Origin: Pseudomonas phage Bise
Sequence record: OR683401.1
DNA: 38,458 nt
Reading direction: 5' to 3' (one strand)
Under the pieces are notes generated by a model. The model searched no databases and was not told the origin of the DNA. It saw only the letters and a program-made list of their open reading frames with translations. A program made the translations under genes and the position numbers. Positions 10,461 through 38,458 of the stretch are shown one piece after another (the first letter of the stretch is position 1; every line of letters begins with the position of its first letter).

Positions 10461-10461
10461 G

Positions 10462-13517: not shown

Positions 13518-13533
13518 GTCGAGTTCCTGCGCG

Positions 13534-14427: not shown

Positions 14428-14437
14428 GTTCTTCTCC

Positions 14438-14743: not shown

Positions 14744-14786
14744 TGGTTGGGTTCTCCTGTGAAAATCATTTGCAGCGTGCGAAAAT

Positions 14787-15036: not shown

Positions 15037-15468
15037 GTGGCCGACTTTGAAAAAATCCTGCTGCGCCTGAAAGAGCAGCTTGGTGTCTCGACAGACAAGG
15101 AAGCAGCAGAGCTGCTAGGGCTTTCCGACAAGGCGCTCAATGCCAGGAAGCGGCGCGGGGTGTTCCCCGAGGAGAAGCTGTGGGTGCTCTCGGCGAATCG
15201 CCCGGATGTAGATGCAATCTACATTTTGCGAGGCGTGAAGAAGGGCGAGGAGCACGCCACGCCAGCGGCGCAGTTGCTGCGCATGAAGGTGCTGGCCAGC
15301 CTGGTAGCCGACGAGCTGCACAAGCGCAAGGCCAGCCTGTCCGAGGTCAGCTTCCATGAGCTGCTTGACGAGCTGTGGCCGGAGTGGAGTGCTGATGCTT
15401 CGCCGGAACCAGCGGCGCTACGCGGGCGCATCGGGCACGCATTGAAGGTGCGAGGCATCAAGGGATGA
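15037..15468 (+). CDS. CI-type phage repressor (Phage_CI_repr HTH domain); probable GTG start
   Basis: Perfect SD CAAGGAGGG at 15025-15033 then GTG at 15037; ...DFEKILLRLKEQLGVSTDKEAAELLGLSDKALNARKRRGVFPEEKL... matches the CI-repressor HTH family. Confidence 0.7.
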   Translation: MADFEKILLRLKEQLGVSTDKEAAELLGLSDKALNARKRRGVFPEEKLWVLSANRPDVDAIYILRGVKKGEEHATPAAQLLRMKVLASLVADELHKRKASLSEVSFHELLDELWPEWSADASPEPAALRGRIGHALKVRGIKG

Positions 15469-23314: not shown

Positions 23315-23440
23315 GTCGAAAACGCTAACGCTGGGTATCGTCTTTTCGTCGATGGGGGCTGGTGCTGTTGCCACCACTATCGGGACTGTGGTAGGCCACC
23401 TCGGCAGTATAGAAAAAAGGTTGTTCAGGCCAAATCCCGG

Positions 23441-26400
23441 ATGAAGGAACTCGGCCTGGAGACCGTGGATGCCTTCGCCGTCCAGAAGAAGGAACTGCAA
23501 AAGGCGAAGGAAGAACTCCAGTCGCACCAGGAGGCCACCACCTCGCTGGGCCGCGCTGTTTCCCAGGCCCGCGTCCAGCAGGAGGCGGCGACCGAATCGC
23601 TGCAAGCCTATCGCACCGAGCTGGCTGGGCAGACCGGCCGCGCCACGGATGAGCAGCGCACCAAGCTCAAGGAACTGCGCGACCAGGTCGGCCTGGCCGA
23701 CAAGAACCTCAAGGGACTGACGCGCGAGTTCAAGGACGCCCGCGACAAGGGCGAAGGCATGAACGAGAGCGTGATGCGCCAAACCGAGCGCCTGCAACGG
23801 CTGCGCTCGGCCCTGGAGCAGAACGGTGTCTCCACGCGCAACCTGGCCGAGCACCGCCGCCGCATCACCCAGGCCATGCGCGACGAGCAGGCCACGGTGG
23901 ACAGGCTGACCACTCGCTACGAGAAGCTGAAGGCCGCGCAGAACGCGCAGCAGCAGGCTCGCGCCGACCTCAACTCGCGCTGGGGCGATGCGATGGCCGC
24001 CTACGGCACCGCGCGGGCGCTGGGTGCGCCCGTTGGGGCGTTCATCCGCCAGGACGATGCGCTCAACTCGCTCCAGGTCGCCATGATGGACAAGAACGGC
24101 CAGGTGGGCGGCACCTACGACGCGCTCAAGCGTCAGGCCATCGAGCTGGGCAACCTGCTGCCGGGCACCACGGCGGACTTCGTTGGCACCGCCCGCGCGC
24201 TCATGGAGCAAGGCGTGGCGGTCGAGTCGGTGCTGGGCGGCGGCTTGAAGGCGGCCTCGTACCTGTCGGTGGTGCTGCGTATGCCCACCGAGGAAGCCGG
24301 TGAGATGGCGGCCAAGCTGCGCGAAGCCTACAAGCTCTCCGACGACGAGCTGACGAAGATGGCCGACTCCATGCAGCGGGCCAAGTTCGCCTTCGGCATG
24401 AAGCCATCCGACCTCATGGCCGCCAGCGCCTACCAGGCACCCATGCTCAACCAGCTCGGTATCTCCGGCATCGACAACACCAACAAGATGCTGGCCATCC
24501 AGGGCATGGCCGCGCAGGTTGGCCTGGAGGGTTCCTCGTTCGGTACCAACTTCTCGATGATGCTCTCGCGGCTGGCCAAGGGGCCGCAGATGATCGAGGA
24601 CGCCAAGAAGGGCATGAAGGGCCACGCCAAGGGGCTGATGGAGGACGCGGGCATCACCTTCGACTTCTTCGACAAGCAGGGCAACTTCGCGGGCCTCGAC
24701 CACATGGTCACCGAGCTGGAGAAGCTCAAGACCATCAAGGACAAGCTGGGCGACAAGGCGGCGATGGAAGTGGCCGAGGCCATGTTCGGTGCGGAGGCGG
24801 GCCGCCCGGCCATGATTCTGGCCGAGCAAGGCATGGCCGGGTTCCGTGCCGCGCAGGAGCGCATGGCGCAGCAGGCCAGCCTGCAACAGCGCATCGAACG
24901 CACCACGGCCAGCAGCCGCAACACCATCGAAGCCTTGGGCGGCTCCCTGGAGAACCTGGGCGCGGCGCTGGCCGGGCCGGTGGTGCAGGCGCTGCATCCG
25001 CTCATCAACACGCTGAACACCGCCACCGGCTGGCTGACGGAGTTTGCCGATAGCAATCCGCGCGCCACCAAGGCGCTGGGCTTCCTGGTGCTGGGCCTGG
25101 GCGCGGCGATCACCACCTTCTTCGCGCTGGGCGTGGCCATGTCCTTCGGCCGCGTGCTCGCTTCGGGCTTCCAGGTCTTTTCGCTCATGACGCGCATCGG
25201 CGGCGGCGCGGCCTGGCTGGGCGGCGTGCTGCGCGGGCCGCTGCTGGGCGCGCTGGGCGTGGCCAGGGTGGCGGTCATCGCGCTGGGCCGGGCCATGCTG
25301 ATGAACCCCATCGGCCTCATCATCACCGGCATCGCGGCAGGCGCGTACCTGGTGTATCGCTACTGGACGCCGATCAAGGGCTTCTTCCTGGGCCTGTGGG
25401 GCGGCATCAAGTCGGGCTTCGTGAGCGCCTGGAACGGCGTCACGTCGATCTTCACCGGCATCTGGAGCCAGATCACCAGCGCCTTCTCCGGTGGCATCGC
25501 GGGCGTGGGCAAGCTCATCGTGAACTGGTCGCCGATGGGGCTTTTCTACAAAGCATTTTCTGGCGTGTTGTCCTGGTTCGGCGTTGACCTGCCGAAGAAC
25601 TTCACGGACTTCGGCGCGAACATCATCAGCGGGCTGACCAGCGGCATCAAATCGGCCATTGGCGGTGCGGTCACGGCCATCGGCGACTTCGCCTCGGGCC
25701 TGAAGTCGAAGTTCACCAACCTGCTGGGCATCAAGTCGCCCTCCAGGGTGTTCATGGGTTTCGGCGGCAACATCGGCGAGGGCGCGGCGCTGGGCATTCT
25801 GCAATCCGTGCCTGGAGTCCAGGGCGCGGCAGGCAGGCTGGCCGGGGTGGCGTTGGCTGGTGCGGTCGCCGCGAGCAACACCGCCGTCGCGGGGGTGAAC
25901 AGCTCCATCCAGACGCGCCAGCCGATTGAGCCGCCGCGCCTGGAAGCTCCGGCCGCACAGGCGCTGCGCCCGGTCGCGCCTGCCGCCATGCCGCGCGTCG
26001 AGCTGCCGCGCATGGGTGTCCCGCGGCTGGACGTGCCCGAGCAGCCGCGCCAGGCTGCTGCGCCCGCACCGATGCCGCAGTCCGCTGCACCCACGCCTGC
26101 CCGCGTTGAACTGCTGCGCCTGGTTGCTCCGGCAATGGCCCCGCTGTCGCTGCCCACGGTGTCGGTAACGGTGCCGCGCATTGAGCTGCCGTCGATGCCA
26201 CGCGCAGATCTGCCTGGCCAGCCGGTGCCGCGCCAGGTTGCCTCGCCAGCGGCTGCGCAGCCTGTCGCGCCCGTGGTGGTGCAGCAGGCCAGCCAGCCCG
26301 CTCCGGCGCGTATCGTGCTGCCCAGCCAGACAGCACCGGCCGCAGTGCCGCCGCCGGTGGTTGCCTTGCCGCCGATGCCGCGTATCGAGATGCCGCGCCT

Positions 26401-26800
26401 GGCGCTGCCGGGGCCGAACCTGGCCGCGTCGCCGGTGACCAGGCTGGTCGCGTCGGTGTTGATGCCGCAGGCCAGCGCGCCCGGCCCGGTGCGTGTCGAT
26501 CTGCCGAGCCTGACGTCGCCCATGCAAGCGGCGCAGCCTGCCGTGCCCGCGTCCATGCAGCGGGTTGGCGAGGTGAGCCAGGCTGTGTCCCGCCGCGAGA
26601 GCGCGGCCGGGGCGGCGACTGCGGCCGCACCTGGCCAGGGGATGACGATTCACTTCTCGCCCAACATCACCGTGGGCGGCGGCGACAGCAACGGCAGTGA
26701 CGTGCGCGGCCAGGTGCAGGAGAGCCTGAAGCTCTCCATGCGCGAGCTGGAGCAGATGCTGCGGCGCTTGCAGGCCGAGCAACAACGGAGGGCTTTCTAA
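23441..26800 (+). CDS. Tail tape measure protein
   Basis: About 1119 aa from MKELGLETVD; coiled-coil N-terminus, Gly-rich TM-like middle, Pro-rich degenerate repeats near the C-terminus. The upstream part of ORF 22979.. is not protein-like. Confidence 0.75.
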   Translation: MKELGLETVDAFAVQKKELQKAKEELQSHQEATTSLGRAVSQARVQQEAATESLQAYRTELAGQTGRATDEQRTKLKELRDQVGLADKNLKGLTREFKDARDKGEGMNESVMRQTERLQRLRSALEQNGVSTRNLAEHRRRITQAMRDEQATVDRLTTRYEKLKAAQNAQQQARADLNSRWGDAMAAYGTARALGAPVGAFIRQDDALNSLQVAMMDKNGQVGGTYDALKRQAIELGNLLPGTTADFVGTARALMEQGVAVESVLGGGLKAASYLSVVLRMPTEEAGEMAAKLREAYKLSDDELTKMADSMQRAKFAFGMKPSDLMAASAYQAPMLNQLGISGIDNTNKMLAIQGMAAQVGLEGSSFGTNFSMMLSRLAKGPQMIEDAKKGMKGHAKGLMEDAGITFDFFDKQGNFAGLDHMVTELEKLKTIKDKLGDKAAMEVAEAMFGAEAGRPAMILAEQGMAGFRAAQERMAQQASLQQRIERTTASSRNTIEALGGSLENLGAALAGPVVQALHPLINTLNTATGWLTEFADSNPRATKALGFLVLGLGAAITTFFALGVAMSFGRVLASGFQVFSLMTRIGGGAAWLGGVLRGPLLGALGVARVAVIALGRAMLMNPIGLIITGIAAGAYLVYRYWTPIKGFFLGLWGGIKSGFVSAWNGVTSIFTGIWSQITSAFSGGIAGVGKLIVNWSPMGLFYKAFSGVLSWFGVDLPKNFTDFGANIISGLTSGIKSAIGGAVTAIGDFASGLKSKFTNLLGIKSPSRVFMGFGGNIGEGAALGILQSVPGVQGAAGRLAGVALAGAVAASNTAVAGVNSSIQTRQPIEPPRLEAPAAQALRPVAPAAMPRVELPRMGVPRLDVPEQPRQAAAPAPMPQSAAPTPARVELLRLVAPAMAPLSLPTVSVTVPRIELPSMPRADLPGQPVPRQVASPAAAQPVAPVVVQQASQPAPARIVLPSQTAPAAVPPPVVALPPMPRIEMPRLALPGPNLAASPVTRLVASVLMPQASAPGPVRVDLPSLTSPMQAAQPAVPASMQRVGEVSQAVSRRESAAGAATAAAPGQGMTIHFSPNITVGGGDSNGSDVRGQVQESLKLSMRELEQMLRRLQAEQQRRAF

Positions 26801-27415
26801 ATGGCGATCATGACGCCGGTAGGCAATTTCGGCACGGGCACCGTCGCGCAGATCATCCATGAGCTGACGCGCACGCGCGGTGGCGTGTCGCAGCACGCGC
26901 TGCTGGGCGAGATCACCTTCGACCTCATCACCTACTTCGAGGGCATGGAGGCGAGCTTCTCGGCCAACTATGCCGAGCACGGGCTGATCGAAGGCAAGCC
27001 CAGGCTGCAATGGGTGGGCGACAACCTGGACGAGGTGACCTGGCGGCTGGTGTTCCATGCCGGGTTCTGCGACCCGGAGCTGGAGATGCTCAAGATGCGC
27101 GGCGCGATCACCCGCCATGAGGCGCTGCCGCTGGTGTTCGCCAATGGCGACTACAAGGGCTGGTTCGTGCCCACCGAGGTGCGCGTGACCACGCGCCAGG
27201 TGATGCGCGACGGCACGCTGATCTGGATGGAAGCCGACCTGAAACTGCGCGAGTACGTGCGCCCCGTGGTGCTGATCGAGGAGACCTCCAAGCAGGAAGC
27301 CGTGGCCACCGAAAAGACCGACCCGAACGGCCAGGTGAAGAAGCCTGCGCAGACCGTCAACCGCACGCCCGCGTCCAGGCCCGCGAGCGTACCGCCGACC
27401 AGGAGCGCGCGATGA
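26801..27415 (+). CDS. P2 gpU-like tail protein
   Basis: 204 aa immediately after the TMP. Confidence 0.45.
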   Translation: MAIMTPVGNFGTGTVAQIIHELTRTRGGVSQHALLGEITFDLITYFEGMEASFSANYAEHGLIEGKPRLQWVGDNLDEVTWRLVFHAGFCDPELEMLKMRGAITRHEALPLVFANGDYKGWFVPTEVRVTTRQVMRDGTLIWMEADLKLREYVRPVVLIEETSKQEAVATEKTDPNGQVKKPAQTVNRTPASRPASVPPTRSAR

Positions 27416-27645
27416 AGGCCATCGACTGCATCGAACACGTCACCGTGGAGGGCGAACGCTGGGACACGCTGGCCTGGCGGTACTACGGCGACCCGCTGGC
27501 TTACGGCCGCATCATCGAAGCCAACCCTGCCCTGGACATCAGCTCTACCTTGCCCTCGGGCCTGGTGGTGCTGGTGCCGGTGTTGCCGCTGGCCGAAGCC
27601 AGCCAGACCTTGCAGGATGAGGAGCTGCCGCCGTGGAAACGCTGA
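27412..27645 (+). CDS. P2 gpX-like tail protein (LysM-like)
   Basis: 77 aa; ...TLDAIAWRYYG...ANP... pattern of gpX. Confidence 0.65.
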   Translation: MKAIDCIEHVTVEGERWDTLAWRYYGDPLAYGRIIEANPALDISSTLPSGLVVLVPVLPLAEASQTLQDEELPPWKR

Positions 27646-28658
27646 AGGTTGCAACGCCCACGGTGGTGGTGGTCTATGAGGGGAAGGACATCTCTGCCCA
27701 CGTCTCGCCCGCGCTGGTCGAGCTGACCTACGTTGACTTCATGGAGGGTGAGAGCGATTCCGTCGATATGGCCCTGGAGGATGCCGAGCGCCGCTGGCAG
27801 GACGCCTGGTATCCGCAGCACGGCGACGTGGTGCAGGTGCAGCTCGGCTTCGCTGGCGAGCCGCTGCTGCCGTGCGGCGAGTTCGAGGTGGATGAGGTCG
27901 AGCTGGAAGGCCCGCCGGATGTGATTCGCATCAAGGCGCTGGCCGCTGGCGTGAAGCGCAGCGTGCGGACGCGCAACGGCCGCGCCTACGAGAACACCAC
28001 GCTGGGCGACGTGGCCAAGACGGTCGCCCAGCGCAACAAGCTCAAGCTGACCGGCACGATTGAGCCGGTGAAGATCGCGCGTGTCACCCAGGTGTACGAG
28101 ACCGACCTGATCTTCCTCAAGCGCGTGGCGGCGAGCTACGGCTATGCGTTCTCGGTGCGCGGCGACAAGCTCTGTTTCTTCAAGCGGTCGGAGCTGAAGG
28201 CGGCCGAACCCACGCTGGTGATTCGCCGCCAGGACGTGACCAGCTACCACTTCCGCGACAAGGTGCGCGGCGTGGTAACGGCGGCCACGGCCTCTTACCA
28301 CGACCCCAAGACCAAGCAGGTCAAGAAGGCCACGGTGCAGGACGCCCAGGCCAAGGGCAACCAGCACAGTGCCGACGAGCTGAAGCTCAACGTGCGGGCC
28401 GAGAACGAGCAGCAGGCCCGGCTCAAGGCCGACGCGGCGCTGGACGTGGCCAACGAAGACCAGACCGGCGGCTCGCTGACCATGCCCGGCCAGGTCAAGC
28501 TGATGGCCGGGGTGAACGTGAAGCTGGAAGGCTTCGGGAAGATGGACGGCAAATACACCGTCACACAGGCGCGGCATCGCGTCTCGCGCAACTCGGGCTA
28601 CGGCACTGAGGTGGACGTCAAGCGCGTGCGCGACCCGAAGCAAGGAGCGACGACATGA
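27633..28658 (+). CDS. P2 gpD-like late control / tail hub protein (Mu N analogue)
   Basis: 341 aa; GPD-family sequence. Confidence 0.7.
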   Translation: METLKVATPTVVVVYEGKDISAHVSPALVELTYVDFMEGESDSVDMALEDAERRWQDAWYPQHGDVVQVQLGFAGEPLLPCGEFEVDEVELEGPPDVIRIKALAAGVKRSVRTRNGRAYENTTLGDVAKTVAQRNKLKLTGTIEPVKIARVTQVYETDLIFLKRVAASYGYAFSVRGDKLCFFKRSELKAAEPTLVIRRQDVTSYHFRDKVRGVVTAATASYHDPKTKQVKKATVQDAQAKGNQHSADELKLNVRAENEQQARLKADAALDVANEDQTGGSLTMPGQVKLMAGVNVKLEGFGKMDGKYTVTQARHRVSRNSGYGTEVDVKRVRDPKQGATT

Positions 28659-29296
28659 ACATGGCCACGGGCGGCGTGCGCTACAAGCAGGGCATCGTGG
28701 CGGAGTCGCGGCCGGGCTTTGCCCGCGTTCGCTTCGACGATGTGGACGGCCTGGTCACGGCCTGGTTGCCGCTGCTGCACCCCAAGACCTTCGCCGACCA
28801 GGTGGTGTGGACGCTGGACGCGGGCGAGCACGTCGGCTGCATCCTGGACGAGTTCATGGAGGACGGCTGCATCCTCGGCGCGATCTATTCCGACGCCGAC
28901 GCGCCGCCGGTGAGCAGCCCGGACAAGTTCCGGCTCCAGTTCAAGGACGGCGGCTCGGTCGAGTACGACCGCAGCAGCGGGGCCATGAACATCGTCTGCA
29001 AGGGCGTTGCAAATCTGACCGCCGATGGCGACGTGACGGTGAAAGCGCCTTCGGTCACGCTGGACACGCCGCAGACCACCTGCACGGGCAAGCTGACCGT
29101 CGAGGGGCTGCTCTCGTATAACGGCGGCATGGTCGGCAAGGGTGGCAGCGGCGGCGCGGCCGCCAGCATCAGCGGCACCGTCGAGGTTGAAGGCCGACGA
29201 GATCAGCCTCAAGCAGCACCGGCACAAGGAACAGGGCGACGGCTCGCCGACCAGTGCGGCGATGCCGTAGCACCCGCAGAAACTAAAGCCCTTTAA
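28655..29296 (+). CDS. Baseplate assembly protein V-like (spike)
   Basis: 213 aa; gpV-like OB-fold N-terminus. Confidence 0.6.
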   Translation: MNMATGGVRYKQGIVAESRPGFARVRFDDVDGLVTAWLPLLHPKTFADQVVWTLDAGEHVGCILDEFMEDGCILGAIYSDADAPPVSSPDKFRLQFKDGGSVEYDRSSGAMNIVCKGVANLTADGDVTVKAPSVTLDTPQTTCTGKLTVEGLLSYNGGMVGKGGSGGAAASISGTVEVEGRRDQPQAAPAQGTGRRLADQCGDAVAPAETKAL

Positions 29297-29300
29297 TCGC
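29276..29300 (+). promoter_or_regulatory. Late-promoter activator site upstream of the baseplate operon: GCAGAAACTAAAGCCCTTTAATCGC
   Basis: Perfect TAAAG-CC-CTTTA dyad; centre about 42 bp upstream of the ATG at 29332; overlaps the 3' end of the V-like gene. Confidence 0.5.
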
Positions 29301-29331
29301 TGAAAAGAGGGGCGAACGCGACCATAGCCGC

Positions 29332-29757
29332 ATGGTTGCCAACGTCCCCGCCACATCTCGCCCAGCATTCTTCCAGCCCGCTCTGTCGGGCGAAGTCGCG
29401 GGCCATCCGTCCGGCCTTGCGAGTGATCGCCTGGGCGAGATCGTGACGGGCGTGGCCGACATCAATCAGTGCATCCACATCATCCTGACCACGCCGAAGG
29501 GGAGCGACCCGCACCGCCCCACCTTCGGCAGTGAGCTGCACCTCTACCTCGACTACCCCATCGACAGCGCCCGCCCGCACCTGGTGCGCGAGGCGGTGGA
29601 TGCGCTGTCCCTGTGGGAGCCGCGCATCCAGGTGATGCGCGTGCCGGTGACGCGGGAGAGCGAATCGGGCCTGCTGGTCAGCATCGAGTGGGTGTTCGCG
29701 GACAGCGTGGAGGCCGAGATGTTCTCCACGCGCGTGCCCATGAGGAAGGTGCTATGA
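29332..29757 (+). CDS. Baseplate wedge protein GPW/gp25-like
   Basis: 141 aa; ...IHIILTTPKGSDPHRPTFGSEL... conserved GPW_gp25 motif; RBS AAGAGGGG. Confidence 0.75.
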   Translation: MVANVPATSRPAFFQPALSGEVAGHPSGLASDRLGEIVTGVADINQCIHIILTTPKGSDPHRPTFGSELHLYLDYPIDSARPHLVREAVDALSLWEPRIQVMRVPVTRESESGLLVSIEWVFADSVEAEMFSTRVPMRKVL

Positions 29758-30872
29758 GCCTGCTCGACCGCCAACTGCCCGAGCCGAGTTTCATCGAACG
29801 CGACCCCGCGAAGGTCACGCGGGAGATGATCGCCACCTACGAATCGCTGACCGGCAAGACGCTGTACCCGGCGCAGGTGGAGCGCCTGCTGATCGACCTG
29901 ATCGCCTACCGCGAGAGCCTGGTGCGCGAGGCGTTCCAGGACGGCGCGAAGCTCAACCTGGTGCGCTACAGCCGGGGCGTGATTCTGGACAACATCGGCG
30001 AGAACGTGGGCGTGGAGCGTGTGGCGGCGGTCGCTGCCAGCGTGAAGCTGCGCTTCACCTTCTCGCCTGCACCGAACACCGCCACCGTGCTGCCGCAGGG
30101 CACCGAGGTGGAGGGCGGCGGCGTGTCCTTCGCCACCACGCAGGCCGTGACCGTGGCCGCAGGCGCGGCGACGGTCGAAGTGCTGGCCACCTGCACCCAG
30201 GCGGGCGTGGTCGGCAATGGGTTCGTGCCTGGCCAGATCAAGACGATGGTGGGGACGCCCTCGGGCCTGGTCGTGGCCAGTGTCGAGAACATCACCACCT
30301 CGGAGGGCGGCGCGGACGAGGAAAGCGACGAGCGCCTGCGCGAGCGCATCGTGGCCGCCCCGGAGACCTTCAGCGTTGCCGGTTCGGTGGAGGCGTACCG
30401 TTTCCATGCCATGTCGGCCCACCCGGACATCGTGGACGTGGCCGTCATCTCGCACATTCCCGGCGACGTGACGCTGTATCCGCTGACCAGCTCCGGCCTA
30501 CCGGGCGAGGCCATCAAGGCGGCCGTGCTGGCGACGTGCAGCGGCGAAAAGGTGCGCCCGCTCAACGACCAGGTCATGGTCGCCGACCCGGTTCCGGTGG
30601 ACTACGCCATCGACGTGGGCGTGGTGCTGACCCGCACGGCTGACGCGGCGCTGGCCCAGGCCCAGGTTGAGCAGGCCGCGCTGGACTTCCGCGACAACCG
30701 GGTGCAGTTCGGCACGTCCATCGTGCGTTCGCAGCTCATCGACGCGCTGCACGTCTATGGCGTGTATTCCATCACGCCCGTGCAGCCTGCGGCCGACCTC
30801 GACCTGGAGAAGTGGGAGTGGCCGCGCTGCACCAGCATCAAGGTCACGGTGACGGGAGTGGCGCATGGCTGA
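29754..30872 (+). CDS. Baseplate J-like protein
   Basis: 372 aa; 4-nt overlap with W. Confidence 0.75.
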   Translation: MSLLDRQLPEPSFIERDPAKVTREMIATYESLTGKTLYPAQVERLLIDLIAYRESLVREAFQDGAKLNLVRYSRGVILDNIGENVGVERVAAVAASVKLRFTFSPAPNTATVLPQGTEVEGGGVSFATTQAVTVAAGAATVEVLATCTQAGVVGNGFVPGQIKTMVGTPSGLVVASVENITTSEGGADEESDERLRERIVAAPETFSVAGSVEAYRFHAMSAHPDIVDVAVISHIPGDVTLYPLTSSGLPGEAIKAAVLATCSGEKVRPLNDQVMVADPVPVDYAIDVGVVLTRTADAALAQAQVEQAALDFRDNRVQFGTSIVRSQLIDALHVYGVYSITPVQPAADLDLEKWEWPRCTSIKVTVTGVAHG

Positions 30873-31905
30873 CTTCGAGAAGCCCTCGCTGCTGCCGCCC
30901 GCGCTTGCGGTTGACCTGTCCATGCGGGCGCTGGAGGTGCTGATCGCGCGCCTGGTCGAACTCGACCTGGCTCCCACGCTGGTCTACGACTTTGAGCACG
31001 TCACCGAGTCGGCGCTGCCGCACCTGGGCGAGCAGTTCCACGTCATGGGTGCGGAGGGCTGGCGGCTGGCCACGACGCCGGAGCAACGGCGGGCGCTGCT
31101 GGCGCGAGCCGTGGCGCTGCACCGGCACAAGGGAACGCCGTGGAGCATCCGTGAGGCGCTCAAGTCGGTGGGCTTCAACGACCTGGAGATAGCGGAGCGC
31201 CTGCCGTCCAACCGCTACGACGGTGCAATCGCGTACAGCGGCGCGGAAGCCTACGCCGCCTACGGCTGGGCGCAGTTCCGCGTCATCGCCGACGCGGGCG
31301 ACGAACAGCCCATCACTTCAGCGCAGACCGCGCTCATCGTCGAGACCATCAACGCATGGAAACCCGCGCGCAGCCACCTGGTGGATGTGCGCTACCGCGC
31401 CAGCGAGACCGAGCAGGTGGACGTAGCCGAGGTCGAGCAGCACCAGGGCGTCATGACCCATGACGACCAGCACCGATGGGGAAAGCACTTTTATGACGGC
31501 GCGCTGGCCTACGACCAGGGCGCTACCCACCTCTGGAACGGTGCGCTGCGCTTCAACGGCGCGGCCCTGCACAACGGTTTCTCGGCCACGGCCGAGGGTG
31601 CCCGCTACGAAGGCGAACGCGAGGAAGAAAGCCTGGAAGCCACGCTCGGCTTCTTCGACCAGCAGACGCGCTGCCCGGTGTTCGCGGGCGAGCTGGACTA
31701 CAGCGGCGTGGCCGACTTCGGGGCATCGGCTCCGGTGGCGGAGGACTTGCCCATGCCCATCACGTTGCGCCGCCACCGGCGCTTCGACGGCCGCCTGGCC
31801 TACAGCGCCCACCGTTTCGACGGTTCGCAGCGGTACGCCGGGCAATTCACCCACTTCGGCAACTCGGCGTACAGCGGCGACGTTGTCACCCTGTTGGAGG
31901 CGTAA
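30865..31905 (+). CDS. P2 gpI-like tail protein
   Basis: 346 aa after J; Phage_tail_I-like N-terminus. Confidence 0.65.
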   Translation: MADFEKPSLLPPALAVDLSMRALEVLIARLVELDLAPTLVYDFEHVTESALPHLGEQFHVMGAEGWRLATTPEQRRALLARAVALHRHKGTPWSIREALKSVGFNDLEIAERLPSNRYDGAIAYSGAEAYAAYGWAQFRVIADAGDEQPITSAQTALIVETINAWKPARSHLVDVRYRASETEQVDVAEVEQHQGVMTHDDQHRWGKHFYDGALAYDQGATHLWNGALRFNGAALHNGFSATAEGARYEGEREEESLEATLGFFDQQTRCPVFAGELDYSGVADFGASAPVAEDLPMPITLRRHRRFDGRLAYSAHRFDGSQRYAGQFTHFGNSAYSGDVVTLLEA

Positions 31906-32348
31906 TGGAAATAAAGATCAAGGAAGGCGTTCCGCTGGCCGGGCACTTCCACGTTGACCTGTATCGGGCCGGTGTCCTGGTCGCGGTCATCGACGAGGAA
32001 AACCTCATCGTCAACGGTGCCAAGAACCAGCTCGCCCGCCTGATCGGCGGCGCGGGCGCGAACCGGCACATCACGCAGATCGGTTTCGGCATTGGCCAGG
32101 CCGCCGCCGCGCCGGGCCAGACGGCGCTGACCTCGCCCTACATCAAGGCCATCGGCAGCGTGGAGTACCCGGCGACCGGCCAGGTGCGCTTCAACTGGAG
32201 CCTGTCCACGGCCGAGCTGAACGGCGTGGCCATCACCGAGTTCGGGCTGATCTGCGCGGACGGCACGTTGTTCTCGCGCAAGCAGCGCAAACCCATCGAG
32301 AAGGAGTCCGACCTGTCGCTGACCGGCTCCTGGACGATTCTTTTCTAA
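31905..32348 (+). CDS. Hypothetical tail protein (possible fibre accessory)
   Basis: 147 aa; start overlaps the I stop. Confidence 0.4.
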   Translation: MEIKIKEGVPLAGHFHVDLYRAGVLVAVIDEENLIVNGAKNQLARLIGGAGANRHITQIGFGIGQAAAAPGQTALTSPYIKAIGSVEYPATGQVRFNWSLSTAELNGVAITEFGLICADGTLFSRKQRKPIEKESDLSLTGSWTILF

Positions 32349-32358
32349 GGAGACCGAT

Positions 32359-33288
32359 ATGGCAAACGTGACTGAAACCCCGACCTGGGAAGGCGGTGTC
32401 TACCAGATCGAAACCACCGACCCCGTGCTGGGCGGCCCCAATGGCATCGCCAACGTGCAGGCCAAGCAGCTCGCCAACCGCACCACGTACCTAAAGGCCC
32501 GCGCCGACCAGGTCGATGCGGCCAAGGGCAACCATGCCAGCCTGACCGCGCGCATGACCGCCATCGAGGCGGCCACCGAGGCGCTCGGGCCGGACGCCCA
32601 GGACGCATCCCTGGCCGCCATCAAGTTCGCCATCGACCAGGCGAATTTGGCCAACCAGGGCGTGCGTGGGCTGCACCAGTTCGCGCAGCAGGAAGGCGTG
32701 CTGACGATCAGCAACCGGGGCGTGGTCAGCGGCTGCACGGTGAGCAAGTCCACCACGGCCGCGCGCAACCTGCACATCTCGACCGGCACCTGCTTTGCCC
32801 AGGGGCGCAAGTTCGCGGTGGCAGACGGCAACAACGCTGCCTCGGTGCCCAGCAACACCGGCTCGGGGGCCGTGACCGTGTTCGCCTACCTGTTCCAGGA
32901 CGCCAGCGGCCTGTGGCGGCTGGCCGTGACGTCCATCGGCCAGGCCGTGCCGGACGGCTGCATCCGCCTCTACAACCTTACGGTGCCCGCCAACTCGACG
33001 GACGCCACCGACCCCAACTTGGCGGCCGTCACGCTCACCGATGTGCGCCGCGTCGAGGCCGGGTTCCCGATCTTGCTGGACAACCCCGCCTCGGCGTCGC
33101 CGCAGCTCGCGGCGCTGCCGGATTCGGCCTACCACGTCACCTTCGACGTGCTCTCGGCCAACGGCGCGCCCGCCGAGGCCAAGAGCCTGGTGGTGGCCAG
33201 CCGTGCCAGCAACGGCTTCACCGTGCGGCTGGCCGCCGCCGCCGACAACGTGGTGGCCCGCTGGCGGGTGAGCCGCCTCAATGCCTAA
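32359..33288 (+). CDS. Tail fibre protein
   Basis: 309 aa; N-terminal ...GGVYQIETTDPVLGGPNGIANVQAKQLANRTTYLK is the conserved baseplate-attachment motif of phage tail fibres. Confidence 0.65.
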   Translation: MANVTETPTWEGGVYQIETTDPVLGGPNGIANVQAKQLANRTTYLKARADQVDAAKGNHASLTARMTAIEAATEALGPDAQDASLAAIKFAIDQANLANQGVRGLHQFAQQEGVLTISNRGVVSGCTVSKSTTAARNLHISTGTCFAQGRKFAVADGNNAASVPSNTGSGAVTVFAYLFQDASGLWRLAVTSIGQAVPDGCIRLYNLTVPANSTDATDPNLAAVTLTDVRRVEAGFPILLDNPASASPQLAALPDSAYHVTFDVLSANGAPAEAKSLVVASRASNGFTVRLAAAADNVVARWRVSRLNA

Positions 33289-33309
33289 ACCCCTGAAAGG
33301 AGATCATCC

Positions 33310-33630
33310 ATGCCGCAAATCATCTTGAAGCAGCCGAGCCAGAACTCGGCCGACTTCTCCGTCAACGGTGCCGTCATCACGGTGGCCGGTGTCACCGTCA
33401 ACTGCGAGGCCCGCGAGGAGGACGTCGCGCAGATCATCGAAATCCGCCAGCACGATGGCGTGGCCCAGGAGGGCGGCGAAGGCGCGTTCCTGGCGCAGAT
33501 CGAAATCCCGGCCCGCCGCTACGTGGACGAGGAAGGCCCGCTCGGCGAGGACGAGCAGCCGACCATCGTGCGCAGCCCCGTGCCGTTCGACCCCAACCGC
33601 GTCGCGCTGACGTTGTGGCCCACCAACTGA
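33310..33630 (+). CDS. Hypothetical protein upstream of the DGR target
   Basis: 106 aa; RBS AAGGAGA. Confidence 0.4.
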   Translation: MPQIILKQPSQNSADFSVNGAVITVAGVTVNCEAREEDVAQIIEIRQHDGVAQEGGEGAFLAQIEIPARRYVDEEGPLGEDEQPTIVRSPVPFDPNRVALTLWPTN

Positions 33631-33646
33631 CCTAGGAGCACCACCC

Positions 33647-34741
33647 ATGACTATCTTCATCAAAGACGACCTGCGCGCGAGCGTGGAAGCGGCCACGGGC
33701 GGCCTTGTCACCGTGCTCTACACGGCGGCCGGGCATCCGAGCTACATGAACGTGATCCCCAAGTTCAACTTGCAGGACATCGACCCGGCGCTGGGCACCG
33801 GGGTGCATCCGGCTTTCATCGTCAACGGCGTGGAAAAGAGCGAGCTGTTCATCGGCCAGCATGTCGGCTGCGTCAAGGACAGCAACCTGCTGTCCTTCCC
33901 CGGCGCGGTGCCGCAGGTCAGCGCGAACTTCGACACCTTCAGGACGTGGGCGGCGAACAACGGCCCCGGCTGGCACATCATGACCAACGCCGAATGGGCG
34001 GCCATCGCCCTCTGGTGCTGGAAGAACGGCACGATGCCGCGCGGCAACAACAACTGGGGCCGTGATGTCGGCTCGACGTGGGAGACGGCCCGCCGTGTTG
34101 ATGGTGGCGCGCCTGGTGATGCCACGGGCAACGGCCGCCACTACACCGGCTCCGGCCCCGCCTCCTGGCGGCACAACGGCCAGGCCAACGGCATTGCCGA
34201 CCTGAATGGCAACGTGTGGGAGTGGTCGGGTGGCCTGCGCCTCAACGATGGCGAAATCCAGGTGCTGGCCAACAACGACGCCGCCGACAACACGAAAGAC
34301 CAGAGCAGCACCTCGACGCTCTGGAAGGCCATCAAGGCGTCGGATGGCTCGCTGGTTGCGCCGGGTACGGCGGGCACTTTGAAGTACGACGCGACGGGTG
34401 CCAACGGCACTGGAGGCAACGTGCTGTCCGACACCGTGACCAGCCGCTCTGGCAACGTGGGCGAGAACGACAACGTCAACGGCACCGGCCAGGCGTTCGA
34501 GAGCATGACTGTGAAGGCGGGGCTGACGGTGCCCGCCATCGCCAAGGTGTTGTGCTTGTATCCGCCTGTGGCGGGCCTGGGCGGCGATAACTTCTGGATG
34601 CGCAACCACGGCGAACGTCTGCCTCTGGCCGGTGGCAGCTATAACAATGGTGCCTCGGCTGGGGTGTTCGCGCGCGATCTCGCTAATGCACGAGCGAGTG
34701 TTAGCGGAAGCGTCGGCGCTCGCCCGGCCTATGTTCTTTGA
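33647..34741 (+). CDS. DGR variable target protein (Mtd-like receptor-binding protein; C-terminal FGE-sulfatase / C-type-lectin fold)
   Basis: 364 aa; GNVWEWSGG and NNWGRD motifs of the FGE/CLec fold; the last about 41 codons are the VR. Confidence 0.8.
   Translation: MTIFIKDDLRASVEAATGGLVTVLYTAAGHPSYMNVIPKFNLQDIDPALGTGVHPAFIVNGVEKSELFIGQHVGCVKDSNLLSFPGAVPQVSANFDTFRTWAANNGPGWHIMTNAEWAAIALWCWKNGTMPRGNNNWGRDVGSTWETARRVDGGAPGDATGNGRHYTGSGPASWRHNGQANGIADLNGNVWEWSGGLRLNDGEIQVLANNDAADNTKDQSSTSTLWKAIKASDGSLVAPGTAGTLKYDATGANGTGGNVLSDTVTSRSGNVGENDNVNGTGQAFESMTVKAGLTVPAIAKVLCLYPPVAGLGGDNFWMRNHGERLPLAGGSYNNGASAGVFARDLANARASVSGSVGARPAYVL
34615..34738 (+). repeat. DGR variable repeat (VR), 124 bp, at the 3' end of the target gene
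   Basis: Near-identical to TR 35329-35452; all 9 differences fall at TR adenines. Confidence 0.85.
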
Positions 34742-34791
34742 AAGGGGGTGCGGTAGCACCCACCAGCAGCGCAACAGCATGTGATGGGTCT

Positions 34792-34824
34792 CCCGGTCGC
34801 GTTAGCGACCGGGCGATTTTTTTT
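34792..34824 (+). other. GC-rich hairpin with 4-nt loop (CCCGGTCGC-GTTA-GCGACCGGG) followed by T8; DGR target-recognition hairpin and/or terminator
   Basis: About 54 bp downstream of the VR; 9-bp stem. Confidence 0.55.
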
Positions 34825-34880
34825 CAGGGGGTGGTGCGATAAAATCGCAAGCGGATTTTGATTGGGGAGGCGGGGCTGGA

Positions 34881-35294
34881 ATGGCGGTAGATCGGGAAGC
34901 GCAACTGGTGCGCAAGTTCGTGGAGTTCTCGAAGCTCCTCAATGTGTACCTAAACCACTTTCCCCGCCACGAACGCTACGCCCTCTCGAACCGAATCCGA
35001 AACGCCGCCTATGACGTCTACGACTTGATCGTGGAAGGTCAGAAGCGGTACCACAAGAAGACGTCCCTCACGCAGCTTGACATTGCCCATGAGCAATTGC
35101 GGATGCAGTTGTTTCTGGCCTATGAAATGGGCTATTTCAAGTTCACGGACGGACGCACCGAAGGGAACGCGGTAGAAGTAGAAGCGAAACGCTGGCAGGC
35201 GATCAGCAAGCTGGTGGATGAGCTGGGCCGCATGATCGGAGGTTGGATACGGCACGAGCTGGCCGAATCGAAAGAGGCAGGCCAGCAGAAATGA
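34881..35294 (+). CDS. avd: DGR accessory variability determinant (Avd), four-helix-bundle protein
   Basis: 137 aa basic helical protein; similarity pattern to BPP-1 Avd; sits between target and TR. Confidence 0.75.
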   Translation: MAVDREAQLVRKFVEFSKLLNVYLNHFPRHERYALSNRIRNAAYDVYDLIVEGQKRYHKKTSLTQLDIAHEQLRMQLFLAYEMGYFKFTDGRTEGNAVEVEAKRWQAISKLVDELGRMIGGWIRHELAESKEAGQQK

Positions 35295-35328
35295 CCAGTC
35301 CGTTGTGGTTTAAGGGCGGCCTACGATC

Positions 35329-35452
35329 ACGTCTGCCTCTGGCCGGTGGCAACTATAACAATGGTGCCTCGGCTGGGGTGTTCGCGCGCAATCTCAATAA
35401 TGCACGAACGAATGTTAACGGAAACGTCGGCGCTCGCCCGGACTGCGGCTTC
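35329..35452 (+). repeat. DGR template repeat (TR), 124 bp
   Basis: Invariant donor copy; 9 AAY (Asn) codons in the VR reading frame; followed by a diverged IMH*-like region. Confidence 0.85.
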
Positions 35453-35605
35453 TTCCTCAAACCTCGAATGGGGATAGTGGAGCCATAGGGATAGGTCGTC
35501 CTGCTTGCCCGCGTAGCGGGCAGCGAACTCGTAGTCACTCCGCGCTTTTTGGTAGGGTTCGGCCCGAAGACCAGCGCGGAGTTTTTTTTGGGGTATGGAG
35601 GGGCA
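35453..35605 (+). ncRNA. DGR spacer region between TR and RT with nested hairpins (35499-35518; 10-bp stem 35537-35546/35573-35582 followed by T8)
   Basis: Non-coding 153 nt with strong secondary-structure potential; analogous to the Sp region of the BPP-1 DGR RNA. Confidence 0.45.
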
Positions 35606-36637
35606 ATGAAGCGGCACGGGAACCTGTTTGAGCAGACCTTCACCCGCGAGGCGCTGTACGACGCCTACGTGGAGGCCAGGCGCGGTAAGCGCCTGCGCAA
35701 GGCGTGCTTCTGGTTCGACATCCGCGCCGGTGCCGTGCTGGACTGGCTGCACCGCCGCCTGCACGATGGCAGCTATGAGATTCGCGGCTACAAGCGGTTC
35801 CTGGTGCATGAACCCAAGACCCGCGAAATCTGCGCGCCGTGGTTCGGCGACATCGTGGTACAGCACGCCATCTACTCGGTCATCAGGCCGATCTTCGAGC
35901 GTGTATTCATCGACCAGTCCTTCGCCTGCCGACTCGGCAAGGGTACACACAAGGCTTCCGAGTACGCGATGGCGGCGCTGCGCCAGAGCCGCCCCGACAG
36001 CTACACCCTCAAGCTCGACATCAGGAAATTCTTTTACCGCATCGACCGGGGCATCCTGCGCAAGCTCATCGAGCGCAAGATCAAGGACAAGCGCCTGGTG
36101 GACATGATGATGAAGTTCGCCGAGCTGCCCGAGCCGCTGGGCATCCCCATCGGCAACCTGCTCTCGCAGGTCTATGCGCTGATCTACCTCAACGCCCTCG
36201 ACCACTTCGTCAAGCGCGAACTGAAGGTGAAGCTCTACTGCCGGTACGTGGACGACTTCATCCTGTTCGACCTCGACCGGGAACAGTGCCTGGAATACAA
36301 GGCGCGCATCGAAGCGTTCCTGCACAACGAGCTGCACCTGGAGCTGTCGAAGTGGACGATGGCCAAGACCAAGCGCGGGGTGAACTTCGTGGGCTACCGC
36401 ACCTGGCGGCGGGCCAAGTTCATCCGCAAATACAGCCTGTTCAAGTTCCGGCGGGCGGCCAAGCGGGGGAAGACGGACAGCGTCATATCGCTGCTGGGCC
36501 ACGCCAAGCACTCGCACTCGCTTGGGTTCATGTGGCGCACCATCCGCGAGGTCAATCCCGACCTGGTGCGCAAGCTGCCGCCGAAGGTGAGGCGCTTCTA
36601 CCCGGCCAGGCCGAGCGCGCCGCCGCAGCAAAACTAA
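35606..36637 (+). CDS. DGR reverse transcriptase
   Basis: Start MKRHGNLFEQ with RBS GGAGG; motifs IGNLLSQ and YVDD typical of DGR RTs. Confidence 0.9.
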   Translation: MKRHGNLFEQTFTREALYDAYVEARRGKRLRKACFWFDIRAGAVLDWLHRRLHDGSYEIRGYKRFLVHEPKTREICAPWFGDIVVQHAIYSVIRPIFERVFIDQSFACRLGKGTHKASEYAMAALRQSRPDSYTLKLDIRKFFYRIDRGILRKLIERKIKDKRLVDMMMKFAELPEPLGIPIGNLLSQVYALIYLNALDHFVKRELKVKLYCRYVDDFILFDLDREQCLEYKARIEAFLHNELHLELSKWTMAKTKRGVNFVGYRTWRRAKFIRKYSLFKFRRAAKRGKTDSVISLLGHAKHSHSLGFMWRTIREVNPDLVRKLPPKVRRFYPARPSAPPQQN

Positions 36638-36648
36638 AGTGCTTGAAT
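36625..36648 (+). promoter_or_regulatory. Late-promoter activator site (P_com / P_mom equivalent): GCAGCAAAACTAAAGTGCTTGAAT
   Basis: Partial copy of the dyad motif overlapping the RT stop; about 200 bp upstream of com. Confidence 0.4.
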
Positions 36649-36840
36649 GGCGGTGCGTGGGGGAAAGCCGGATGCTATCGGCTGAAAAGGACGGGCGACC
36701 CCACCCGGTGCTGGAACACCGGACGGAACCCCAATCAAGCAGACAAGCCTGCAAGACCGGCCAAGGCCCGCCACCTGGTACCAGGCGGTTCTTAGCCTAT
36801 CAGAATCTGCAAATGGTTTGCAGAAAAGGGCTTGTTCGCT

Positions 36841-37044
36841 ATGACGGAGATTCGTTGCGCCGCTTGCTCCCGCAAGCTGGGAGAGGGTGAGTTCACCCGC
36901 CTTGTCATCAAGTGCCCGCGTTGCCGGGCGCTCAACACCTTGAAGGCCGAGAGCCTCCCGCCAGAACGCCACCGAGCGTCCAGCTCCGAAAGGTTGCCCG
37001 ATGGAAGGCTCCATGATCGCGGAGGCGCAATCCCGCCTCGATGA
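36841..37044 (+). CDS. com: Com-like zinc-finger translational activator
   Basis: 67 aa; MTEIRCAACSRKL...IKCPRCRALN CxxC...CxxC as in Mu Com; overlaps the start of the downstream modification gene. Confidence 0.6.
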   Translation: MTEIRCAACSRKLGEGEFTRLVIKCPRCRALNTLKAESLPPERHRASSSERLPDGRLHDRGGAIPPR

Positions 37045-37825
37045 CGTCCAGGCCGTGCCGCTTGTCCCCTGGGTGGGTGGCAAGCGCCGCCTGGCCCCGC
37101 ATATTCTCCCGCTGCTGCCAGCGCATACCTGCTACGTCGAACCGTTCGCGGGCGCGGCTGGCTTGTTCTTCTCCAAGCCGCCCAGCAAGGTCGAGGTGCT
37201 CAACGATGTGAACGGCGACCTGGTCTGCCTGTACCGCGTGGTGCAGCATCACCTGGACGAGTTCATGCGGCAGTTCCGCTGGTCGCTCACCAGCCGCCAG
37301 ATGTACGCCTGGCTGCGGGAAACGAGGCCAGACACCCTTACGGACATCCAGCGGGCGGCGCGCTTCTTCTACCTCCAGAAACTCGCCTTCGGCGGCAAGG
37401 TGGACGGCCAGACCTACGGCACGTCCACCACGGCCCCGATGCGCCTGAACCTGCTGCGGCTGGAGGAGGACTTGAGCGCGGCCCACCTGCGGCTGCACCA
37501 GGTCAACATCGAGAACCTGGACTGGCACGCCTGCATCACGCGCTACGACCGCAAGCACACCCTGTTCTTCTGCGACCCGCCGTACTACGGCACCGAGGGC
37601 TACGGCGTCGAGTTCGGCCTGGAGCAGTACGACCGCATGGCCGAGCTGCTGCGCACGATGAAGGGCAAGGCGGCCGTCACTGTGAACGACATCCCGGCCA
37701 TGCGTCAGGCGTTCAAGGGGCTGGCCATGAAAAGCCTGGCCATCCGCTACACGCTCGGCAAGGCCGGGGCCGGTCGGCAAGAGCGCGGCGAGCTGCTGGT
37801 GATGAACTACGAGCCGGGCGGTTGA
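37001..37825 (+). CDS. N6-adenine DNA methyltransferase, Dam / D12 class (in the mom position)
   Basis: Motif I EPFAGAAGLF near the N-terminus and motif IV DPPY (FFCDPPYYGTEGYG); start may be at 37013. Confidence 0.8.
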   Translation: MEGSMIAEAQSRLDDVQAVPLVPWVGGKRRLAPHILPLLPAHTCYVEPFAGAAGLFFSKPPSKVEVLNDVNGDLVCLYRVVQHHLDEFMRQFRWSLTSRQMYAWLRETRPDTLTDIQRAARFFYLQKLAFGGKVDGQTYGTSTTAPMRLNLLRLEEDLSAAHLRLHQVNIENLDWHACITRYDRKHTLFFCDPPYYGTEGYGVEFGLEQYDRMAELLRTMKGKAAVTVNDIPAMRQAFKGLAMKSLAIRYTLGKAGAGRQERGELLVMNYEPGG

Positions 37826-37878
37826 CTGTTCGGCCAGGTAGAGCGGTACTGCTGCCATCGCAACGCAAGGAGATGCAC

Positions 37879-38076
37879 ATGGCCACGCCAACCCTTTCAC
37901 CCGCCGCCCAGGAGCAGCTCCTGGGCATAGCCACCACCACGCTGGGCCTGGAAACCCTGGAGACCCGGGACTCGGACAGCCTGGACTTCCACGACCTGGC
38001 GGTCGGGGCGATCAAGGCGGCCCTGGAAGCTGCCTATCTGGCAGGAATGGTTGACCACCACCGGAGGGCCGCATGA
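37879..38076 (+). CDS. Small acidic hypothetical protein (right-end cargo)
   Basis: ATG with AAGGAG RBS; 65 aa. Confidence 0.35.
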   Translation: MATPTLSPAAQEQLLGIATTTLGLETLETRDSDSLDFHDLAVGAIKAALEAAYLAGMVDHHRRAA

Positions 38077-38303
38077 TGACGCCCATCGAACAGAGCCTGA
38101 CCGACTACCTCGGCGGCTACACCCGCAACAACCCCGCCAGCCGGGCGCACGTCATGAGCTACCCGGACTGGCAGCAGATGGCCAGGCTGGAGCTTGATCG
38201 CCGCGCAGCCAGCCTGCTGTCGGTGCTGCCGGACGAGGAACTCCGGGCCATCGCCGAGGGCCAGGTCAGCCTGCCCGAGTTGGCCAGGAACCTGCCCACC
38301 TGA
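38073..38303 (+). CDS. Small hypothetical protein (right-end cargo), translationally coupled to the previous gene (ATGA)
   Basis: 76 aa ORF. Confidence 0.35.
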   Translation: MMTPIEQSLTDYLGGYTRNNPASRAHVMSYPDWQQMARLELDRRAASLLSVLPDEELRAIAEGQVSLPELARNLPT

Positions 38304-38324
38304 TCATCTCCCACCCGGAACGAA

Positions 38325-38358
38325 GAAGGCCGCCCATGAGGCGGCCTTCTCGTTTGTG
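38325..38358 (+). terminator. Rho-independent terminator GAAGGCCGCC-CATGA-GGCGGCCTTC followed by TCGTTTGTG
   Basis: 10-bp perfect stem after the last gene. Confidence 0.6.
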
Positions 38359-38372
38359 CGCGCTGGGCGCTT

Positions 38373-38456
38373 CTGCAATTCTCTTTCAACCTTTGGCGCT
38401 CCACCGGAGGGGCGTTTATCGCGGCTCCGAGGCCGCAGTTATCGCGGCGCGCTTCA
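38373..38456. mobile_element. Mu-like right end: terminal ...GCGGCGCGCTTCA-3' with repeated TTATCGCGG (38417-38424, 38440-38448) transposase-binding-like sites
   Basis: Terminal 13 nt resemble the Mu terminus (GCGCCGCTTCA); repeats in the last 60 bp. Confidence 0.6.
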
Positions 38457-38458
38457 TG

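Follow-up and report, generated by a model that had tools for sequence, protein, structure and literature searches.

Organization of the DGR cassette in phage Bise

The window analysed here is the whole 38,458-nucleotide stretch of Pseudomonas phage Bise (sequence record OR683401.1), and the segment of interest, at 35329–35452, lies within a group of genes and RNA features arranged in the canonical order of a DGR: a target gene with its VR, a hairpin with a GRNA loop, avd, the template repeat (TR), a spacer RNA and a reverse transcriptase (RT) gene. The features are as follows.

33647–34741, plus strand: DGR target gene, encoding a 364-aa TaqVP-type single-domain variable protein of the CLec/FGE fold (phmmer match to 5VF4, E = 8e-103; phrog_2889, E = 1.4e-139)
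34615–34730, plus strand: VR, at the 3' end of the target gene, ending 11 nt before the stop codon; direct repeat with the TR
34712–34727, plus strand: candidate IMH-like element, the adenine-free, G+C-rich VR end GTCGGCGCTCGCCCGG, read from the sequence
34746–34761, plus strand: hairpin/cruciform GGGTGC-GGTA-GCACCC, 15 nt past the VR, with a 6-bp stem and a 4-nt GRNA loop
34792–34824, plus strand: intrinsic terminator downstream of the target gene, whose 9-bp stem leads into a T run (fold z = -3.9)
34881–35294, plus strand: avd, 137 aa (PF22296 bAvd, E = 1.9e-14; PF05635, E = 1.7e-9; phrog_3206 'Avd protein of DGR', E = 4e-22)
35329–35444, plus strand: TR, with 25 adenines and nine in-frame AAY codons
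35445–35605, plus strand: spacer RNA of 161 nt from the TR to the RT gene, conserved across 35 relatives
35606–36637, plus strand: DGR RT, 343 aa (RVT_1, E = 5.9e-17; BPP-1 bRT 8UB7, E = 4.5e-53, 38% identity)

BPP-1 bRT is the best match of the RT among solved structures, and its IPIGSLTSQ and YMDD line up with the motifs IPIGNLLSQ and YVDD of the Bise RT. The exact target protein is on record as WP_073657885.1 / WVC95901.1, where it is named 'hypothetical protein' (Pseudomonas phage Bise). A Pfam search of this protein returned no domain at E <= 0.01; the FGE-sulfatase model, which is recorded for many homologues, misses the target protein itself. Its gene follows the baseplate and tail-fibre genes, with Tail_P2_I on ORF 30865–31905 and a tail-fibre PHROG on ORF 32359–33288. 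A sigma-70-like promoter was sought in 33500–37000 and none was found.

The TR is written in AAY codons

Within the window, the TR and the VR form a 116-nt direct repeat that is 92% identical. The homology stops at 35444, and positions 35445–35452 lie outside the repeat. A search for a second VR across the window found none, the next best ungapped match to the TR segment being 60/124. Translated in the frame of ORF 33647–34741, the TR reads R-LPLAGGNYNNGASAGVFARNLNNARTNVNGNVGARP-D, and the downstream copy gives RLPLAGGNYNNGASAGVFARNLNNARTNVNGNVGARPD in that frame. The sequence-only reading had claimed nine Asn codons (AAC or AAT) for the TR in the VR frame, and this is confirmed: there are nine AAY codons (four AAC and five AAT) among 38, against none and one in the two other frames. 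The enrichment is far from chance, as not one of 100,000 mononucleotide shuffles of the TR reached nine and the shuffle maximum was five. Similarly, Asn makes up 24% of the translated TR and 9% of the rest of the target protein (binomial P = 0.006).

The TR holds 25 adenines, of which 24 are in-frame, and 18 of these 24 occupy the first and second positions of AAY codons. Three more are silent third-position adenines (in GCA, CGA and GGA), and the leftover ones are in TAT, ACG and GAC codons. Mutation of the adenines can therefore give 15 different amino acids at each of nine positions and four at each of three more, which amounts to a theoretical protein diversity of about 2.5e12 variants that never includes a stop. 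The stop-avoiding design that had been proposed for these codons thus holds, since none of the adenine-containing codons of the TR can be turned into a stop codon by mutation of its adenines.

Codon choice also differs between the TR and the gene that it resembles. Five of the nine Asn codons in the TR (35330–35443) are AAT, whereas the gene body (33647–34615) uses AAC 28 times and AAT once; the AAT-rich usage fits an untranslated template that is free of translational selection. The TR nevertheless sits in an open frame of 81 codons (35243–35488), which exists because the TR copies the end of the target gene. In relatives, gene callers mark a 65-aa protein over the TR (L044, 10209–10406; L045, 11646–11843), and this ORF is almost certainly spurious.

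Two TR alleles occur in the lineage, and they differ at codons 353–355. In the window these codons are AAC GGA AAC (N G N; 35417–35425), whereas the prophages of Citrobacter type have AAC AGC AAC (L042, 11771–11779) and the L001 locus has AGC AGC. The existence of two alleles accounts for the Gly, Ser or Cys at residue 354 of some homologues, though this residue is invariable in the window's own element.

TR and VR differences and the target site

The TR and VR differ at nine positions, all of them TR adenines (seven A>G and two A>C; hypergeometric P = 2.7e-7). These adenine-specific mismatches, together with the flanking Avd and DGR-type RT genes, bear out the earlier identification of the segment as a TR. 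One of the nine stands apart. Residue 361, encoded by GAC in the TR and by GCC in the VR, is Ala in 27/27 close homologues; because it is invariant despite the adenine in its TR codon, the mismatch between A at 35442 and C at 34728 is a fixed difference between TR and VR and not a product of mutagenesis. This leaves eight mutagenesis-type differences in the window, and three AAY positions are still Asn in the VR. The 35442/34728 mismatch appears to mark the 3' boundary of homing.

The fixed C at 34728 directly follows the GTCGGCGCTCGCCCGG element. By comparison with the IMH of BPP-1 (PMC3240598), this element is likely to be an IMH-like site at which the 3' end of the cDNA integrates. Past the VR, the predicted hairpin can be set against the target-site consensus of phage DGRs, which has a GRNA loop and a stem of 7–10 bp (PMC3240598). 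The 6-bp stem in Bise is shorter than that range. Relatives have hairpins in the same place, with differing stems and with GGTA, GAAA, GATA or GAGA as loops. In loop and position, the Bise hairpin matches the conserved target-site element of phage DGRs (PMC3240598).

The spacer RNA and a candidate priming site

The alignment of spacer sequences from relatives, analysed with RNAalifold, gave the following elements between the TR and the RT gene.

35447–35452, plus strand: template-side duplex strand, GGCUUC
35455–35480, plus strand: covarying stem-loop, with strong covariation in RNAalifold
35479–35484, plus strand: primer-side duplex strand, GGAGCC
35485, plus strand: conserved A, candidate priming nucleotide, directly after the primer-side strand
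35503–35524, plus strand: hairpin, from the spacer alignment and RNAalifold
35537–35582, plus strand: terminator-like hairpin, then T8 at 35582–35589

The 6-bp duplex between GGCUUC and GGAGCC is matched by compensatory changes in relatives (GGUUUC/GGAACC, AGCUUC/GGAGCU, GAUUUC/GGAGUC and GAUUCC/GGAAUC), and the conserved A that follows it stands opposite a C in 21/21 cases. A parallel is the template:primer duplex of BPP-1 seen by cryo-EM (TR118–125:Sp49–56), in which Sp A56 is the priming nucleotide (bioRxiv 10.1101/2023.10.23.563531). On this evidence, A35485 is probably the priming adenosine. Position 35481 (GUGG-A) was also considered for this role and was rejected, as covariation favours 35485, the A after the duplex. 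Positions 35445–35452 are part of the functional template RNA, and the pairing of 35447–35452 explains why the functional template reaches to about 35452, the end that had been picked in the sequence-only reading.

Further along the spacer, the terminator-like hairpin ACTCCGCGCT...AGCGCGGAGT with its T8 (35537–35589) ends 16 nt upstream of the RT start codon. It is kept in the closest relatives (L046–L050) and is not conserved in more distant ones or in BPP-1. The structure could end a discrete TR-spacer RNA or attenuate expression of the RT. An Rfam scan of 34500–37000 gave an anti-hemB match that overlaps this hairpin; at 19.6 bits against a gathering threshold of 49.5, it was dismissed as a sub-threshold chance match.

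The spacer of the Bise lineage could not be aligned with those of loci found through the target protein, and it aligns well only with those of loci found through the RT. Comparison with the Castellaniella locus (L003) gives 59% identity for the target and only 37% for the RT, and the two spacer RNAs cannot be aligned; by RT and spacer, Bise groups instead with a separate set of IMG/VR phages. The unequal identities and the spacer mismatch imply that the target module and the RT/spacer module have different histories. These sequence comparisons suggest that the RT/TR-spacer module may have been exchanged between DGRs that share the target family.

Probable mapping of the variable positions to the binding face of a TaqVP-type protein

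An AF2 model of the target protein, built from an alignment of 116 homologues, has a pLDDT of 96.5 and a pTM of 0.94. Its top PDB match in Foldseek is TaqVP (5VF4; TM 0.94, E = 1e-52, 48% identity), followed by TvpA (E = 2.4e-3) and then CalU17, EgtB, Mtd and PvdO, which are FGE-type CLec proteins. The sequence match to TaqVP listed above is ungapped across the VR. The CLec-type fold that had been presumed in the sequence-only reading is therefore upheld by the model and by its similarity to TaqVP.

[quoted passage not shown] With an offset of 17, they align to window residues 331, 334, 344, 347, 351, 353 and 355. The two other AAY positions, 333 and 346, lie within the same segments, are equally hypervariable and are AAY in most related TRs. 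By way of this solved homologue, the mapping indirectly supports the prediction that the AAY positions are exposed on the ligand-binding face at the C terminus of a C-type-lectin fold like that of TaqVP.

Sequence entropy among homologues gives the same positions. We compared 27 proteins from the two closest 90% clusters (roughly at least 88% identity), and the nine highest-entropy positions of the 364 were 331, 333, 334, 344, 346, 347, 351, 353 and 355, which are all nine AAY positions. Thus, the proposal that the AAY codons are the sites of diversification is borne out residue by residue. Furthermore, the amino acids seen at these nine positions are chemically diverse, a tolerance that indirectly supports their predicted exposure, and all of them fall within the set of 15 residues that an AAY codon can reach.

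Natural variation in the VR

Near-identical relatives of Bise allow variation in the cassette to be followed over short distances. Over window positions 32001–38456, a Logan contig (L040) departs from the window only by 16 substitutions (34637–34710) and by a single indel at 34744, which lies 14 nt past the VR. Of the 16 substitutions, 15 fall on TR adenines, the three silent third-position ones among them, and the TR, avd and RT are identical between the contig and the window. Similarly, three prophages of a sister sub-lineage (L042, L043 and L045) differ at 15–17 sites over 6.7 kb, 14 of which lie within the 116-nt VR, and their TRs are identical though their VRs differ. Across six VR copies (five of them distinct), 22/26 adenine positions vary, against 3/90 non-adenine positions (Fisher P = 1e-16). 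From these comparisons, the DGR looks active in nature.

Two VR changes in these genomes are not at adenines. One is T>C at 34665 in L040, which gives V340A, and the other is G>T at TR offset 81 in L043, beside a mutated adenine. They may be rare RT errors or ordinary mutations.

The cassette within its wider family

With the target protein as query, 39 loci were found in species-representative genomes, and 18 of these have clear TR/VR pairs with adenine-directed mismatches and 8–10 AAY codons at conserved positions. With the RT as query, 80 IMG/VR loci were found, and TR/VR pairs were present in 65 of the 66 that were testable. The 53 distinct TRs associated with related RTs average 10.2 AAY codons out of about 37, and their mismatches number 826 at adenines and 20 elsewhere. 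A stop is reachable in just 4 of their 859 adenine codons, and three of these four come from one truncated locus. In addition, the 90% protein cluster of the target has 151 members, with the VR differing in most. The window belongs to a large family of phage DGRs and is typical of it. At the nucleotide level, a megablast search of 50,697 phage records, with the cassette and with 24 kb of the window as queries, gave nothing useful and no relative of the cassette, and a search of 30000–38458 against complete E. coli genomes gave no match.

The phage genome and its hosts

Bise is a transposable prophage of CI/Ner type with a G+C content of 66%, from a cystic-fibrosis isolate of P. aeruginosa, and was described as a novel, monotypic taxon that resembles known phages only slightly (PMC11846083). 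The terms 'reverse transcriptase', 'DGR' and 'diversity-generating' do not occur in that paper (PMC11846083). Among the genes of the window are a Mu portal, a transposase and a MuB-like ATPase, together with a myovirus tail and a P2-type baseplate, and com and a D12 adenine methyltransferase lie at the right end. There, a Com-type zinc-ribbon translational regulator (36841–37044) overlaps the start of a D12-class N6-adenine DNA methyltransferase (37001–37825). The pair lies immediately after the DGR, in the position of com-mom in Mu.

The genome is laid out in two divergent arms (1–15468 and 15788–38458). The minus strand carries a ner-like gene, the transposase (11688–13817), the MuB-like ATPase (10462–11688), the terminase (3025–4716), the Mu portal (1405–3015) and a Mu G-like gene (138–842). 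On the plus strand are a c-like repressor (15022–15468), the head protease, major head and tail genes, the DGR, and com with the methylase. Mu has its portal, G, protease and head genes side by side on one strand. The opposite orientation of the left-arm genes, and the three read mappings that had to be combined for Bise (PMC11846083), raised the suspicion that the left 15 kb is an artefactual inversion. However, TG stands at the start of the record, as at the end of a transposon, and an independent provirus from IMG/VR (L128) likewise stops at the G-like gene, so that the divergent layout may be real.

Prophages like Bise are also found in other hosts. The three prophages of the sister sub-lineage (L042:1–14804, L043:1–14652 and L045:1–14652) are about 92% identical in nucleotide sequence to window positions 23427–38456, with a G+C content of 64% and a TR that is essentially unchanged. 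In the Citrobacter hosts, the junctions between prophage and chromosome are visible, leading into enterobacterial DNA of 54–55% G+C: the prophage of C. freundii adjoins hypE-hypA/hycA and that of C. farmeri adjoins nrfA/acs/actP. On a Pseudomonas-like metagenome contig, a Bise-like prophage adjoins uvrC/pgsA. The insertion site differs each time, as Mu-like transposition predicts. One member of the target cluster is named from Aeromonas hydrophila, which is probably also a host of the Bise lineage.

Discussion

The window carries the sequence-level features of a DGR: a TR/VR pair with mismatches confined to adenines, an RT of the DGR clade, Avd, a VR at the 3' end of the target gene with a hairpin, and an AAY-built template. 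We conclude with high confidence that the segment is the TR of an intact DGR, apparently active in nature, in the Mu-like P. aeruginosa prophage Bise, where it would diversify a tail-associated, putative binding protein. Our data show the repeat, its adenine specificity, the codon design, the set of genes, the fold of the target and a natural hypervariation limited to the AAY sites. Ongoing, unidirectional retrohoming from TR to VR has strong comparative support, as the TR is constant where the VRs of otherwise identical phages differ; we infer the priming site, the mechanism of homing and the role of the target protein as a receptor binder.

The proposed cycle would run as follows. The avd-TR-spacer-RT region would be transcribed, and a complex of RT and Avd would fold the spacer RNA onto the 3' end of the template. 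Synthesis of cDNA would then be primed at a spacer adenosine, probably 35485, and the TR would be copied with misincorporation only opposite adenines. The mutagenised cDNA would take the place of the VR (34615 to about 34727) in the tail-associated gene (33647–34741), guided to it by two features, the G+C-rich VR end that lacks adenines and the downstream hairpin with its GRNA loop. As the variable positions probably lie on the ligand-binding face, we propose that new receptor-binding specificities keep arising in this way.

Two alternatives would deny that diversification by the cassette is under way. The cassette could be a decayed relic, with TR/VR differences that are old and with no more diversification. 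The small number of mutagenesis-type differences (just eight, with three AAY positions still Asn), the terminator-like hairpin before the RT and the failure to detect a promoter would all suit a relic. However, the three ORFs are intact and the RT retains its catalytic YVDD; phages that are identical over more than 6 kb differ in the VR only, silent adenine sites included, apart from the indel 14 nt beyond it; and the VR differs in most of the 151 members of the protein cluster. We therefore consider a relic very improbable. It is harder still to credit that the hypervariation of the VR reflects point mutation under strong diversifying selection, or recombination of tail-fibre alleles, with the Asn-rich repeat as an incidental partial duplication. 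Receptor-binding tips are classic targets of diversifying selection and the protein scaffold is itself rather Asn-rich (9%), but selection on the protein does not explain why silent third-position adenines (GCA, CGA and GGA) vary while the 90 non-adenine positions are near-invariant. Nor does selection account for a downstream copy that stays constant while the gene copy changes, and the adjacent Avd and DGR-type RT genes would be left unexplained. The AAT-rich Asn codons of the TR, so different from those of the gene body, likewise fit an untranslated template.

A different question is what the diversification is for. It could serve a purpose other than receptor binding, such as recognition of environmental ligands or a role inside the lysogen, as has been suggested for chromosomal DGR targets. 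TaqVP-type proteins are monomeric and single-domain and their ligand is unknown (PMC6328139), and the Bise target has no recognisable tail-fibre attachment domain. We nonetheless think such a purpose unlikely, because the gene lies in the late tail operon, right after baseplate J, Tail_P2_I and a homologue of a tail-fibre N terminus, and because phage homologues are annotated as 'antireceptor', 'virion structural protein' or 'BPP-1 major tropism-determinant-like'. In the BPP-1 precedent, the diversified protein is the receptor-binding protein.

If the target protein of Bise is indeed a diversified receptor binder, what might this mean for its hosts? The hosts of this one DGR phage lineage span different orders. 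A tentative and rather doubtful interpretation is that one DGR-armed, Mu-like lineage lysogenises hosts of different orders because the DGR-diversified tail protein enables the crossing. Were the DGR the cause, this would be a natural, DGR-driven expansion of host range, far beyond the phase-variant switching of BPP-1.

This study shows that a published cystic-fibrosis prophage carries an intact and apparently active DGR that is absent from its description (PMC11846083). The receptor specificity of Bise could accordingly change fast, which matters for phage-host dynamics in P. aeruginosa and for phage therapy. Furthermore, Bise makes a DGR available in a genetically tractable Pseudomonas, and a crystal structure exists for a close homologue of its variable protein.

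Comparison with known systems

The prototype DGR of BPP-1 (mtd-avd-TR-brt) has the same gene order as Bise, namely a target with a C-terminal VR, avd, the TR, a spacer of about 150 nt and the RT. The two RTs are 38% identical, and both have IGxxxSQ and YxDD. The TRs are of similar build, with 134 nt, 25 adenines and 10 AAY codons in BPP-1 and 116–124 nt, 25 adenines and nine AAY codons in Bise, and both systems have a G+C-rich VR end and a GRNA-loop hairpin past the VR. The spacer motifs are also collinear (CCUC, GUGG, the conserved A and GUCCUGC-hairpin-GCGAA). However, the Bise spacer is without about 30 nt of the 5' part of the BPP-1 spacer, and the candidate priming A stands opposite a C in Bise and opposite a U in BPP-1, so that the priming geometry is not identical. 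The phages differ as well, Bise being a Mu-like myovirus and BPP-1 a podovirus. The target proteins are very different: that of Bise has no sequence similarity to Mtd and matches it in Foldseek at E = 0.02–0.1 with a TM of about 0.3, in the CLec core. Mtd is trimeric, with three domains (beta-prism, beta-sandwich and CLec), an architecture not seen in the Bise target, which matches TaqVP over its full length.

TaqVP, from a prophage DGR of Thermus aquaticus (PDB 5VF4), is a much closer counterpart of the target, with 48% identity over the full length and a TM of 0.94. Both proteins have the VR at the extreme C terminus, over about 40 residues, and 7/9 variable positions of TaqVP coincide with variable positions in Bise. 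AAY is the main TR codon of the TaqVP DGR (PMC6328139), as it is in Bise. The number of AAY codons is seven in TaqVP and nine in Bise, where 333 and 346 are the extra variable sites, whereas I344 and V354 of TaqVP have no variable counterpart in Bise. Where the TaqVP site has conserved Trp residues, Bise has Tyr332 (TAT, partly variable) and Gly354. The host of Bise is a mesophilic Pseudomonas, unlike that of TaqVP.

More distant homologues of the target, with 36–44% identity over the full length, are found in Vibrio phage VHML (ORF35), Klebsiella Kp487x prophages, Aeromonas phiARM81mr, Pseudoalteromonas ACA1/ACA2 and Faecalibacterium Lagaffe. Like Bise, these phages are temperate and have contractile tails, and VHML is among the phage DGRs for which a GRNA hairpin has been shown (PMC3240598). 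Mu-like phages with a DGR near the tail-fibre genes, as in Bise, include the Bacteroides hankyphage, Faecalibacterium Mushu/Lagaffe and Bacillus BalMu-1; unlike Bise, these infect other bacterial phyla, and their RTs are at most 40% identical to that of Bise. Since Mu-like DGR phages are known and the AAY design is textbook (PMC6328139), the sequence-only reading was right about a DGR that is ordinary, though unannotated. That an AAY-rich TR feeds the binding face of a CLec fold is a long-established principle, one that Bise confirms and does not extend.
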